NCBI GenBank assembly: GCA_963714895.1
Contig: CAVQQC010000016.1
Location: 106,133 to 170,132, forward strand
Origin: Candidatus Sulfomarinibacteraceae bacterium
GTDB lineage: Bacteria; Acidobacteriota; Thermoanaerobaculia; Thermoanaerobaculales; Sulfomarinibacteraceae
Length of the DNA: 64,000 nucleotides
Reading direction: 5' to 3'
The position numbers and the translations under genes were made by a program. This document shows, in pieces, positions 58,913-63,136 of the stretch. Position 1 is the first letter of the stretch; every line of letters begins with the position of its first letter. Below the pieces are notes generated by a model. It was not told where the DNA came from, did no database searches, and was given only the letters and a program-made list of their open reading frames with translations.

Positions 58913-59778
58913 TAGGTGCCGGGTCCGCAGTTCCGTAGTTGTTACGAATCAACGATCGTCACCAATCAACAGCCTATCCAACTTCTCATACCGTTGCTGA
59001 AGATGTTCGTCGTCGAGCCTTTGTTTGACTCCTTCACGCTGAATGTAGGTTACCGTGTCCGCGCTTTTGTGGAGTGCCGACGCTAAGTTCTTGGTGCTCT
59101 GTGCCCACCGTTCCCGTCCCAAGGTAACGATTAACCTTCGGGCCTCGACCAGTGGTTGCAGGCGGGAACGACTCGCGAGGTCTTCGACCTTGAGCTGAAG
59201 GATATCGGCGCAATGTCGGATGAATTGATCCGCTGAGAGTTCATCTCGCTCCGGCCCGGTGCTCCTTCCGAGGACGTCGATATAGGGCCCCTCGTCATCC
59301 GGAGCCAAGTCTCGATCCGGCCGAAACCAGATTTCAGGCAGGCCTGTTTCTCGACCCGCTTCCGCCCCGAGATCCCGGCACCCCTGCCGGATCGCCGACA
59401 GGTAGGCCTTCCGCGCATCACGCTGCTTCTGCCCAAAGCTCAGCAGGCAGTCGTCAACGTCGATGATGGGGTTCGAGATCCCCTTGACGATTTCTCGGTG
59501 GCCGCTGAAGACATGGTCGACCGGGCGAGCGACCAATCCGCCTGCTACCGGGTTGAGATGAATGTAGAGAATGACCCGATCGAGGTATCCCTGCTCATTG
59601 ATCGGTTTCGCGTGGTAACGACTCTGCCAAAGCGCCCCGGTGCGTCTTCGCCCTCGGTTGAATCGCTGGCTGAATCTACCTTGAAGATACTGGAATCCCC
59701 GCGAGATCGGGATCGCTCTGCTCCGTATGGCGAGGTGGTAGTGGTTCGACATGTAAACCCAAACAGAACACCCCACTC

Positions 59779-60237
59779 GTGGGTGATGGCGGACGAGTCC
59801 ACATCTACTACCGATACCACGGCCATGCGGGCGGCGAGTTCGAAGTTGCCAAGGCCTGGAAGGCGCGGGGACAACAGGTCAACGTCGTCCTTCCGAACGG
59901 CTCCCGCCTCTTGGTCCCGGAGTGGGTGACGCAGCCCAGCGCCGCCGCCTTTGAGGTGACAGAGCAGGCTGCAATCAGCGTCGGAGCCTTGCTGGCGATT
60001 TGTCAACTCATCGAAAGCCGCGGGTGCCGGTCGGCGGCGCGTCACGGGTCTACTCTTTCGGCGAATGAAACCAACGCCGGAAAGGGGGACGCGGATGGAG
60101 CAGCTTCGACTCCTCGTGATCGAGGACGAGGTGACCGTTCGAGTCGAGCTCGACGAGAGCCTACGCGACGAGCTGGTCACCCTGATGGTCGCGGCCATCG
60201 TGGCCGTCCATCAAGCAGAAACGGAGGCCGACAATGA
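59779..60237 (+). CDS. Accessory ORF1 of the recombinase element; lacks a strong start in the integrated state
   Basis: IYYRYHGHAGGEFEV..LPNGSRLLVPEWVT. The frame is open back to the left junction, and its stop overlaps the recombinase ATG. Confidence 0.55.
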   Translation: MGDGGRVHIYYRYHGHAGGEFEVAKAWKARGQQVNVVLPNGSRLLVPEWVTQPSAAAFEVTEQAAISVGALLAICQLIESRGCRSAARHGSTLSANETNAGKGDADGAASTPRDRGRGDRSSRARREPTRRAGHPDGRGHRGRPSSRNGGRQ

Positions 60238-60241
60238 GTGA
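60095..60241 (+). CDS. 48-aa accessory ORF2 (MEQLRLLV...ETEADNE)
   Basis: Own translation; purine-rich RBS AAAGGGGG; overlaps the recombinase start by 8 nt. Confidence 0.55.
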   Translation: MEQLRLLVIEDEVTVRVELDESLRDELVTLMVAAIVAVHQAETEADNE

Positions 60242-62366
60242 TTGGGACCATCCCAAGGTTCGGTCGGAGCATGTCAGCCGTAAGGCTGTCGTGTATCTCA
60301 GGCAGTCATCGATGAAACAGGTCCGGGAAAACCTCGAGAGCCAGCGCCTTCAGTACGCCCTGGCAGACCGCGCGCGGAAAGCCGGATTTGCCGAGGTCGA
60401 GGTCATCGACCGCGACCTCGGCGTCAGTGCGGCGGTCGGTTCCGATCGCGAGGGATTTGAGCGCCTGGTTTCGGAGGTTGCGCTGGGCCAGGTCGGTGCC
60501 GTGGTTTCTCGAGAGGTCTCCCGGCTTTCGAGGACCGACAAGGACTGGTGCCATTTACTGGAGGTCTGTCAGGTCTTCGACACCCTGATCATGGACGAGG
60601 ACCAGGTCTACGACCTCAGCGAGATCGACGACCAGCTCGTGCTCGGCATCAAGGGCACGATGAGTGTCGTGGAGCTGAAGGTGCTGCGAATGCGAATGCT
60701 CCGAGGTCGCGAGGAGAAGGCCCGGCGCGGGGAGCTCAGAACCCGCCTAGCGCCGGGCTTCGCCTACGACTCGACCGGCAAGATGGTGCTGCATCCTGAT
60801 CAAAGAGTTTTTGACGCGATCTCGCGAATCTTCCGAAAGTTCCGCGAGCTGTGGAGCGCGCGCCAGGTCTTCATGTGGTTTCATGACAACGAAATCATGG
60901 TCCCGGTCAACCGCTGGGGAGGAGGACCTGCCGAGCTGGAATGGAAGCTACCGACGCTCAGCTTCATCCAGGACGTCCTGCGCAATCCGGTCTACGCCGG
61001 GGCATACGTTCATGGTCGGCGACCGGTCGAAACCGTGTTCGAGGACGGCAAGCTCGCCAAACGAGCGGGGAGCCCGAGAGAGCCAGAGGACTGTCACGTC
61101 TTCCTGCGGAATCATCACGAAGGTTATATTGACTGGCAGGAGTATGAGCTCAATCGCAAGCGGCTGCGACGAAACTGTATGAGATTCGAAAGCGATCCGG
61201 CGACCGCGGCGGTTCGTGGTGGTCACGGCCTGTTGGGCGGTGTCCTGCGCTGCGGGCATTGCGGTCGCAAGCTCCAGGTGCGCTACTGGGGGAAGAAGGG
61301 GACCACACCTCGCTACTTCTGCAAGGGCGACTACGATAGCGGCGGCGCCTACTGTCTGTCCTTCGGTGGTCACAAGGTTGATCAGCGCTTCTCCGAGGAG
61401 GTCTTAAGGGTGCTCTCCCCGCTGGGGATCGAGGCCGGCCTGCGGGCGACACAGGAGCTCCGATCACAGCATGAGGATCGAGTGCAGGCGCTCAAGCTCG
61501 AGCTCGAACAGCTCGACTACGAGGTTCGGCGGGCGTTCGAGCAGTACGACGAAGTCGACCCGAGGAACCGGTTGGTCGCGGCCGAGCTCGAACGCCGGTG
61601 GAATGCCAAGCTCGAAGAGCAGAATCGGGTTCGGCAAAACCTGATTGCGGTGGATGCGGATCGGCAGCCGGTCACTTCGGAGGTCGAGGCGAAGCTTCGC
61701 AATCTCGGTGAGAATTTCACGCTGGTCTGGAATGATCCCGGTTGCCCGGTCGAACTGAAGAAGAAGGTCGTACATACGCTCATCGAGGAGATCACCGTCA
61801 CGCTCGACAACGATGTCGCAACGCTTCGATTCGTCGTTTACTGGAAAGGCGGCTGCCACACCGAGTTGGCACTGGAAAAGCCTCGGCCGGCTACCGCCAC
61901 GAAAACCTGTTCAGACGCGCTGGAAATCATTTGCAAGATGGCCTCAAACTACGGCGACGGACAGATCGCCGCCGTCCTCAACAAGTCAGGACTCCGCACC
62001 GGCAAAGGCAAACGCTGGACTCAGACCCGCGTCGCGACGGCCCGCAGGAACCACTTGGTTACCGGCCAACGATCGATGATTCCAGACTCCGATATCCTCA
62101 CCCTCAGTCATGCGGCAAAGCACTGCGACGTCAGCCAGCACACGATCCAGCAGCTCGTGAAATGTGGTCTCCTGGAAAACAACCAGGTCGTCCCGCACGC
62201 GCCGTGGGAAATCAGGAGAGAGGATCTCGAATCCGAACCCATCCGAATAGCCCTGGTACACCTCAAAAGGACCGGCAAACTGTCCCCGATGGGGGGTCAT
62301 TTACGATCCCAAATAGCACTTCCTCTTGAAAACAAAGAAGATGATAACGAGGGGTATTATGAGTGA
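60234..62366 (+). CDS. Large serine recombinase (resolvase, recombinase, Zn-ribbon, coiled coil, C-terminal HTH)
   Basis: VYLRQSS, EVSRLSR, LRNPVYAG, LLGGVLRCGHCG..YFC, LTLSHAAKHCDVS. Confidence 0.95.
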   Translation: MSDWDHPKVRSEHVSRKAVVYLRQSSMKQVRENLESQRLQYALADRARKAGFAEVEVIDRDLGVSAAVGSDREGFERLVSEVALGQVGAVVSREVSRLSRTDKDWCHLLEVCQVFDTLIMDEDQVYDLSEIDDQLVLGIKGTMSVVELKVLRMRMLRGREEKARRGELRTRLAPGFAYDSTGKMVLHPDQRVFDAISRIFRKFRELWSARQVFMWFHDNEIMVPVNRWGGGPAELEWKLPTLSFIQDVLRNPVYAGAYVHGRRPVETVFEDGKLAKRAGSPREPEDCHVFLRNHHEGYIDWQEYELNRKRLRRNCMRFESDPATAAVRGGHGLLGGVLRCGHCGRKLQVRYWGKKGTTPRYFCKGDYDSGGAYCLSFGGHKVDQRFSEEVLRVLSPLGIEAGLRATQELRSQHEDRVQALKLELEQLDYEVRRAFEQYDEVDPRNRLVAAELERRWNAKLEEQNRVRQNLIAVDADRQPVTSEVEAKLRNLGENFTLVWNDPGCPVELKKKVVHTLIEEITVTLDNDVATLRFVVYWKGGCHTELALEKPRPATATKTCSDALEIICKMASNYGDGQIAAVLNKSGLRTGKGKRWTQTRVATARRNHLVTGQRSMIPDSDILTLSHAAKHCDVSQHTIQQLVKCGLLENNQVVPHAPWEIRREDLESEPIRIALVHLKRTGKLSPMGGHLRSQIALPLENKEDDNEGYYE

Positions 62367-62571
62367 GTCGTCATCACGCACCATGCCAGCACACTCCATC
62401 CATCACGTGTCTTCGTTTCTCGCACGGTGTCGATGAACTCGACCGCTTCCTCAGGATTCGCGAATATCGGTTCGCCGCTCGCAACCCGGTTGTACACATG
62501 GTACAAACCACCTTCGATCTCGACCCTCGCCCTTCGAACCATAGATTTTTCCCTGTTCGGGAAAGCTATCA

Positions 62572-62817
62572 CAACTTTCTAAGTTTCTAAAGCCTGGCAC
62601 CGATAATGGCACCGATAAGAAACTCCACCATTATCTCCACAGGCAGGATAGAGCATCACGACCAGCAGGATGATGACGATGGTGGTTGCGACGATGATGG
62701 TGACGATGACGACGGTGGTGGGCGTGACCACCATCATGATGATGGTGATGTTGATCAGCAGCGAAGTGAACGGCCGGCGCCGGCCTCGGTCAACTTTCTA
62801 AGTTTCTAAAGCCTGGC
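62572..62817 (+). repeat. 27-bp exact direct repeat, each copy followed by a short tandem duplication
   Basis: CAACTTTCTAAGTTTCTAAAGCCTGGC at 62572-62598 and 62791-62817, followed by (TGGCACCGATAA)x2 and (TGGCTCTGATT)x2. Confidence 0.92.
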
Positions 62818-62842: not shown

Positions 62843-63136
62843 GTGGGGAATTTTGCATCGTACTGCCGTTTGGTGAAGTCGGATCGGTTCAGCAACGGTA
62901 AGCGAAAGGGCTCAGGCAACTCCAAAAACGGCAACCCCAATTTGTCTTGGGCTTTCTCGGAAGCTGCCCATTTCGCGGTGCGTTACTACGAGCCTGCCAA
63001 AAAGTTCGTGCAACGGAAACGATCCAAGACCAACGGCATCGTGGCGATCAGAGCTTTGGCTCACAAGCTGGCGAGAGCGTCGTACTACGTCATGAAAGAT
63101 CAAGTGGACTTCGATCCCGATAAAACGTTTTCATAA
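62843..63136 (+). pseudogene. IS110 transposase C-terminal fragment
   Basis: FASYCRLV..SNG..KNGNPNLSWAFSEAA..ALAHKLARASYY; the DEDD N-terminal domain is missing. Confidence 0.85.

Follow-up and report, generated by a model that had tools for sequence, protein, structure and literature searches.

A minimal large serine recombinase element with an accessory gene predicted to be whole only across its joined ends

A 64,000-nucleotide stretch from Candidatus Sulfomarinibacteraceae bacterium (assembly GCA_963714895.1, contig CAVQQC010000016.1, positions 106,133 to 170,132), referred to here as the window and used for all coordinates below, was found to carry a 2622 bp element at 59753-62374 on the plus strand, counting one copy of the central dinucleotide shared by its two ends. 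In the order of that strand the element holds an open reading frame (ORF1), a small second frame (ORF2) and the gene of a 710 amino acid (aa) large serine recombinase (LSR). We consider it probable that this is a minimal LSR-driven element whose recombination site lies within the first codons of ORF1, such that ORF1 would be whole only across the joined ends. The original prediction for this DNA had claimed that ORF1 is fully made only from the excised form, and a comparison of homologous junctions in 36 lineages now supports that claim.

Ends of the element and the computed junction

The element ends that had been assumed earlier proved to be correct. In the same genome a paralogue of the target gene that carries no insertion (locus L002, about 1500-1530) reads through the insertion site, and because this paralogue is unbroken across the site the insert was taken to be 59753-62374. 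The trinucleotide CAT is present at both junctions (59750-52 and 62372-74), within which the central (crossover) dinucleotide AT occupies 59751-59752 on the left and again 62373-62374 on the right, with the same 11-nucleotide (nt) geometry on both sides. In a relative with 82% nt identity (L004) the right end is identical and is followed by a different copy of the same type of target gene, and the contig of that relative starts exactly at the left end of the element. The ends are also supported by a further relative (L005), and contigs of four public sequencing runs break at 59752/59753 and at 62374-62389. The element is single-copy in its own genome.

The claimed signal at the right end is present as described, with GAGGGG at 62349-62354, the spacer tatt at 62355-62358 and ATG at 62359-62361, and it is located 13 nt from the right end of the element. 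The frame of this ATG overlaps the LSR frame, which stops at 62364-62366, by 8 nt. A scripted join of 62359-62374 to 59753-60237 gave a frame of 166 codons with no stops and with the first residues that had been predicted. In the integrated form the frame of ATG 62359 crosses into the flank and ends after just 25 codons. The reading frame of ORF1 spans GTG 59779 to TGA 60235-60237; upstream of this GTG, back to the stop ending at 59673, it has no ATG, GTG or TTG. GTG 59779 is the only internal start candidate of ORF1 in the window, and no Shine-Dalgarno (SD) match was found in the 20 nt preceding it. The frame match in the window alone could be chance; the comparison across the family described below indicates that it is not.

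The right arm of the recombination site (62339-62374, plus strand), which is identical in L004, contains the SD GAGGGG, the ATG and the first four to five predicted codons of ORF1. The left arm (59753-59776, plus strand) corresponds to codons 6-13 of the junction-spanning ORF1, including a conserved CAG (Gln) at 59764-59766. Read in mirror image, it agrees with the right arm at 15 of 24 positions in the window, and it hardly varies between the window, L004 and L005.

It had further been claimed that the ORF1 stop overlaps the recombinase start. This stands for the window, where the stop overlaps the LSR ATG at 60234-60236, but not for G+C-poorer lineages, in which the ORF1 frame stops earlier. 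In those lineages the ORF2 stop is at or just past the LSR start, where the sequence examined reached that far.

The right-end start codon across the family

Relatives were collected by a scan of genome contigs with the recombinase (7 loci), by an ORF1 profile search within the phylum (401 genomes, 19 with a match; one complete genome with four copies) and by a metagenome scan with a recombinase alignment, which found 597 relatives among 598 stretches, 80 being kept. Of the 101 sequences scanned, 100 had an LSR match and 88 carried the ORF1 domain upstream of the LSR, most of the others being cut off upstream. A profile search with the ORF1 domain among 1.84 billion proteins matched 575 representative clusters at E ≤ 1e-3.

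Ends were determined by a frame-blind test in which every NTG near the LSR stop was paired with each CA in the roughly 110 nt that precede the ORF1 core, an identical dinucleotide was required at both predicted centres and the arms were scored for mirror similarity. The inverted-repeat score alone was too noisy for end finding and the requirement for an identical central dinucleotide was therefore added. Among 65 loci with both ends present, 45 passed, the best pair being a right ATG or GTG and a left CA in frame with each other; these 45 loci represent 36 lineages (clusters at <80% nt identity), with LSR identity as low as about 36%. A further locus (L056), outside the 45, passes by eye. In the passing loci, profile column 22 of ORF1 follows the left CA(N) codon at a distance of exactly 8 codons. 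All share a right-end layout of SD, ATG or GTG, 11 nt and central dinucleotide, and a left-end layout of the same dinucleotide, 11 nt and an in-frame CAT, CAC or CAG for a conserved His/Gln of ORF1, the distance from the start codon to the conserved His/Gln codon across the joined ends being 27 nt. Where the ends are fixed by several copies or by the target gene (L007/L009/L010, the four-copy genome with G170, L042, and the L054-L071 group) the layout is as in the window.

A conserved in-frame ATG at the junction had been named beforehand as the test to make on homologues. The codon at this position is ATG in 33 of the 36 lineages and GTG in the other 3; over the nine junction codons a stop occurs in this frame in 0/36, compared with 22/36 and 5/36 in the other two frames. 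The central dinucleotides of the 36 lineages are AA (10), GG (8), CC (3), AG (3) and seven other kinds, 11 kinds together. The dinucleotide was seen to vary among close relatives as well, with GG in L007 versus GC in L009, and AA, TG and AG among L064, L066 and L068.

The two arms of the site were found to differ in ways which bear on the function of the right-end ATG. An SD match of at least 4 nt at a spacing of 3-11 nt is present in 31/36 right arms and in 8/36 mirrored left arms, with a background of 20% (Fisher p 7e-8); for matches of at least 5 nt the figures are 23/36 and 1/36, with a background of 6% (p 2e-8). The mirror position in the left arm reads ATG in 19 lineages, GTG in 13, CTG in 3 and TTG in 1. 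Before the core, the left end has no in-frame ATG, GTG or TTG in 28/36 lineages. Relative to the ORF1 start, the LSR stop is located between -30 and +49 nt, in most cases between +14 and +18, as in a coupled operon. Together the asymmetries between arms and frames argue for translation from the right-end start.

A number of observations weigh against this reading, and several of them speak for the alternative that the SD-like run and the ATG at the right end are no more than part of a binding site of the LSR, with ORF1 translated in the integrated form from a start that is internal or non-canonical (GTG 59779 in the window). The ATG pairs by mirror symmetry with the CAN codon of the left arm and belongs to the imperfect inverted repeat that makes up the recombination site; recombinase binding would therefore constrain it too. 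The frame is set by the geometry of the site: as 11+2+11 comes to 24 nt the frame match is automatic, and the lineages are not independent trials, so that conservation of the frame alone proves little. The right-arm codon count is biased since the filter admitted just ATG or GTG there; no CTG or TTG was seen at the start position among the conserved right arms compared. In 8/36 lineages, the window included, an in-frame GTG, TTG or ATG does precede the core. Some representatives of the ORF1 family are called with ATG directly at the core. On the other side, the called N-termini of this family vary wildly, with flank fusions and V or L starts at the core, as is expected if integrated ORF1 is without a proper start. 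A sequence that serves binding would moreover be expected in mirrored form on the two sides of the site, and the SD match is not (31/36 right, 8/36 left); in 17/36 lineages the left-arm mirror begins with G, C or T, where the right arm has ATG in 33/36; the junction frame alone is free of stops; and 28/36 lineages have no start codon at all before the core, while GTG 59779 has no SD. We therefore regard the binding-site explanation as unlikely.

The remaining points on that side concern the loci and the sequence data. Twenty of the 65 loci failed the end test, being cut by contig ends, decayed or with mismatched dinucleotides. Nine loci (L040, L053, L055, L058, L059, L065, L096, L111, L128) have the SD-ATG and the His codon with differing dinucleotides at the flanks; the central dinucleotides of the two sites must match for serine recombinases, which makes these nine loci odd, and they are perhaps chimeric assemblies of a repeated element. 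In L045 the crossover inferred from the target gene is about 6 nt deeper into the element than the 11+2+11 geometry places it, and both placements preserve the junction frame. The element of L045/L044 is also shorter (2149 bp, with a recombinase of 538 aa), its target being a zinc-ribbon motif at the C-terminal end of an IS91-like gene. Logan contigs of four public runs (X1, X2, X10 and X18; three DNA and one RNA), compared over 59400-62700, contained no joint of 62374 to 59753 and no empty site; contigs drop rare forms, and the missing joint therefore says nothing against circles. No tandem or circular assembly and no terminal overlaps were found among the loci collected.

In X1 the element contig had a depth of 15 versus 2-3 for the flanks, and loose contig ends display other insertion contexts with similar His-motif flanks. 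The RNA contigs cover the element at low depth, which is not proof of transcription. A near-identical element was seen in metagenomes of 10 studies.

The right-end signal could also serve the integrated state, as a restart outward into the target gene or to give a fusion protein. The integrated ATG does face the flank, with just 13 nt of element after it. Against this, the element is antisense to its target in 14 of the 16 lineages with a target identified by Pfam, the window included; the outward frame of the window ends after 25 codons, and that of the sense-oriented L009 stops after 8 codons, out of frame with the target. We give this explanation next to no weight, less than either of the other alternatives.

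It is also very unlikely, in our estimate, that the joined ends chiefly create a promoter, as in Tn4451 or IS110, with the start codon being secondary. Circles of such elements are known to switch on genes by junction promoters, and no promoter was found inside the integrated element: a scan of 59500-62600 gave no sigma-70-like site, which weighs on our own reading as well. In elements with junction promoters (IS911, IS30, IS110, Tn4451) the joining of the ends brings -35 and -10 hexamers together. In contrast, a consensus scan of the 36 computed junctions found a sigma-70-like site across the crossover in 0/36 and within 150 nt upstream of the start in 1/36, a result that counts against this explanation and also leaves our own reading without a promoter at the joint; the scan is crude and host promoters may differ from the consensus. 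The joint is moreover coding sequence, since only 11 nt separate the crossover from conserved ORF1 codons on one side and from the start codon on the other.

Products of the element and its target genes

The conserved domain of ORF1 comprises about 90 aa; the ORF1 body extends over 59764-60237 (plus strand), with this domain reaching to about 60030 and followed by an Arg/Gly-rich tail which overlaps ORF2. ORF2 (60095-60241, plus strand) encodes 48 aa in the +1 frame relative to ORF1, has its own AAGGGGG Shine-Dalgarno and ATG, and ends shortly after the ATG of the LSR. Compared with L004 and L005 (about 82% nt identity), the first ~90 codons of ORF1 differ mostly at third positions, and in 60095-60240 the substitutions are synonymous in the ORF2 frame. 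Judged by these substitution patterns, ORF1 and ORF2 are genuine genes. Most of the 36 lineages encode an ORF2-like peptide shifted by +1 from the ORF1 frame; L048, L070 and the representatives P0008, P0029 and P0149 have the ORF2 segment in the ORF1 frame itself, and the L048/L070 arrangement suggests that ORF1 and ORF2 act together. ORF2 is small and conserved, combining a leucine-rich helix with an acidic tail, and may be made as a protein of its own or as part of a frameshift fusion. Its overlap with the tail of the ORF1 frame is an addition to the earlier account.

No Pfam match was obtained for ORF1 of the window even at E ≤ 1, nor any NCBIfam match, and likewise nothing useful for ORF2. 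Pfam DUF5372 was matched by 35 of 90 aligned ORF1 relatives (best E 5e-8), and by this sequence similarity ORF1 probably belongs to an extended DUF5372 family, the window copy itself being unmatched. An AlphaFold2 (AF2) model of the conserved domain gave a small SH3/KOW-like barrel with helices (predicted local distance difference test score, pLDDT, 86). Foldseek of this model against the Protein Data Bank (PDB) found nothing at E ≤ 0.001, and a wide VIA-align search returned just generic SH3/KOW/Tudor-like barrels with Z ≤ 5.9, which imply no function.

The 710 aa protein encoded at 60234-62366 (plus strand, stop TGA) was identified as an LSR from its Resolvase (18-167, 4e-18), Recombinase (195-314, 4e-17) and Zn_ribbon_recom (333-388, 2e-8) domains, all above the curated Pfam cut-offs. 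Seven relatives, the most distant at 33% identity, all keep Y21, R23, Q24, S25 and Q29, and by analogy we take S25 to be the catalytic nucleophile. The L002 empty site revealed no target duplication at the insertion, and AT is present at both junctions, as for large serine recombinases. Assignment to the IS607 family was considered and rejected: the NCBIfam model transpos_IS607 gave 20.7 bits where its cut-off is 110, IS607 transposases are small whereas this protein has 710 aa, and the tnpB that usually accompanies them is absent.

A complex model of the ORF1 domain with the LSR scored 0.67, the best control scoring 0.00; for comparison, 58 of 80 solved complexes and 2 of 110 mismatched pairs attain this mark. 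The runs agreed in at least 93% of contacts, with a partner pLDDT of at least 70. The predicted interface on the LSR involves residues 339-409, that is the zinc ribbon and the region just after it, and 478-544; on ORF1 it involves residues 21-24, 48-55 and 66-89. The model supports a predicted binding of ORF1 to the LSR.

The target gene in the window lies on the minus strand, with its C-terminal part at 58949-59752 and its N-terminal part, recognized from the list of open reading frames and from alignment with the intact paralogue L002, at 62375-62572. The C-terminal part matched Pfam Y1_Tnp (E 1.7e-5) and, for a DnaA-type helix-turn-helix (HTH), Bac_DnaA_C (E 1.4e-4, below its curated cut-off). 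The insertion falls in the codons of a conserved His-rich motif of the target, which we take to be the HUH motif.

In nearly every lineage the insertion interrupts a conserved motif in a gene that belongs to another mobile element. Of 20 flank ORFs tested, 18 had a Pfam match, 16 of them above the curated cut-off; these 16 matched Y2_Tnp/Zn_Tnp_IS91, TnpB_IS66, IstB_IS21, RVT_1 with GIIM, or Phage_integrase, and the remaining matches were one to DruA and one, below cut-off, to rve. Loci with flank targets were L064, L068, L073, L045, L085, L088, L009, L097, L103, L115, L112, L118, L048, L104, L086 and L042. The alphaproteobacterial L007/L009/L010 are inserted in IS66 tnpB, and the copies of the four-copy genome and of G170 occupy the codons for the Walker A motif in an IstB-like gene. 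In L093 (176-790 and 777 onward) one element interrupts the LSR gene of another family member, the insertion falling in the Cys-rich zinc-ribbon motif; a match to the recombinase profile abuts ORF1 there.

Beyond the right flank of the window element, 62606-62809 is rich in GAT and GGT, with Asp/Gly/His-rich ORFs on the plus strand and Val/Ile/Thr-rich ORFs on the minus strand, and 62843-63136 holds an ORF of 97 aa which by eye resembles the C-terminal end of an IS110-type transposase.

Proposed switch and comparison with known systems

The anatomy of the element and its conservation are established; that it leaves as a circle, that the junction start is used, that ORF1 binds the LSR and what ORF1 does are inferred, and the whole may operate as follows. 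The right end would hold the ribosome-binding site, the start and the first four to five codons of ORF1, overlapping or directly after the LSR stop, and the remainder of ORF1 would start with the leftmost base of the element. Integration would then leave the ORF1 body without a translation start of its own, with just the SD-less GTG in the case of the window. The LSR would join the ends, most likely as an excised circle, although a head-to-tail tandem would give the identical joint. The joined order would be recombinase, ORF1, ORF2 and again recombinase, closely spaced or overlapping, and ORF1 would be made in full. Its product would most likely act on the LSR itself, the model placing the conserved domain on the zinc-ribbon region, and its likeliest role would be to set the mode of the LSR for the free circle, favouring insertion, or to prevent re-excision. 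Insertion would split ORF1 and in this way synthesis of the factor would terminate itself.

The original prediction proposed a directionality, targeting or maintenance factor, and ORF1 may be any of these. A classical directionality factor stimulates excision and blocks integration. Such a factor fits badly with expression from the circle only, and for this reason a role in setting insertion is favoured; were ORF1 a classical factor, circle-only expression would work against reinsertion, which is a difficulty for the proposed switch. As a tentative extension, which we think possible but would not yet bet on, the family may use a self-resetting directionality switch in which ORF1, perhaps with ORF2, is made only from the joined ends, binds the zinc-ribbon/coiled-coil region of the LSR, sets it for insertion and is shut off by that insertion, and the family may at the same time be parasitic on conserved motifs of other mobile elements. 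The genes parasitized would on this same tentative reading be those of IS91 and IS200-like HUH transposases, the TnpB of IS66, the Walker A of IstB, the group II intron reverse transcriptase, tyrosine integrases and the zinc ribbon of LSRs of its own kind.

Serine-integrase directionality factors such as Bxb1 gp47, phiC31 gp3 and SPbeta SprB are small proteins that bind the LSR, at its zinc-ribbon region, and switch it between attP x attB and attL x attR recombination; the modelled position of ORF1 on the zinc-ribbon region of the LSR is similar. However, no sequence likeness or specific fold likeness of ORF1 to recombination directionality factors was found, and expression from the circle only is unlike that of a factor which drives excision.

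Among the closest in overall design are the clostridial transposons Tn4451 and Tn4453, small LSR (TnpX) elements with a circular intermediate in which the joint creates a missing expression signal; Lyras and Rood in 2000 reportedly described the circle joint of Tn4451 as forming a promoter for the recombinase gene (TnpX). There the joint makes a promoter of the recombinase, whereas here a ribosome-binding site, a start and first codons are joined to an accessory gene, and ORF1 and ORF2 are not known to have a counterpart in Tn4451/Tn4453. Transposons of the Tn4451/Tn5397 type have a fixed GA dinucleotide at their ends and in their targets, and their recombinase alone forms the circular intermediate and inserts it. 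In contrast, GA is absent among the 11 kinds of dinucleotide found in the 36 lineages. Integrase genes of SSV1-type archaeal viruses are split by integration and are whole only when excised, and they share with ORF1 that a gene of the element is cut by its own integration; there, however, it is the integrase gene itself that is cut, near its middle, and its product is a tyrosine recombinase.

Other systems offer a state-dependent signal of a different kind. In IS110/IS1111, the joined circle ends rebuild a promoter, and a guide RNA needed for insertion is made from the circle (PMC11208160). The likeness is that an insertion factor is expressed from the circle by way of a reconstituted signal; the difference is that theirs is a DEDD recombinase with a promoter and a bridge or seeker RNA, where here there are a serine recombinase, a translation start and a protein. 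In ICEclc (Pcirc) and ICEKp1 (P3'end) a signal of the far end is placed before a near-end gene only when the element is excised (PMC13023037), which is likewise state-dependent expression by a far-end signal, but it is transcriptional, acts on the integrase gene and belongs to large conjugative elements with tyrosine integrases. Mycobacteriophage BPs and its relatives have the attachment site in coding sequence, so that integrated and free products differ (PMC4557955). The attachment site is inside a gene in both cases; it is the 3' end of the repressor gene which is swapped in BPs, with loss of a degradation tag on integration, whereas here the 5' start region is removed and the gene would be on only when free. 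None of the compared systems is known to split the translation start from an accessory gene.

A literature search, with most subscription journals outside its scope, found no description of the family, of the junction start codon design or of serine-recombinase elements inside insertion sequence (IS) genes, and this family of hundreds of sequence clusters is apparently undescribed. The sensing of state by junction promoters and attachment sites in the 3' part of genes were known already. Here a translation start region of an accessory gene would be severed by the recombination site of the element itself, family-wide.

LSRs are widely developed as tools for genome insertion, for which the control of direction is a practical problem, and the action of a small partner protein tied to the free form could be assayed in vitro, from purified components on short DNA substrates. 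For 36 lineages the comparison now supplies the ends, the 11+2+11 geometry and natural targets. The insertion of these elements into conserved motifs of the genes of other elements is relevant to competition among mobile elements. If true, the arrangement would let the family turn a partner of its LSR on and off in a very simple, hard-wired way.

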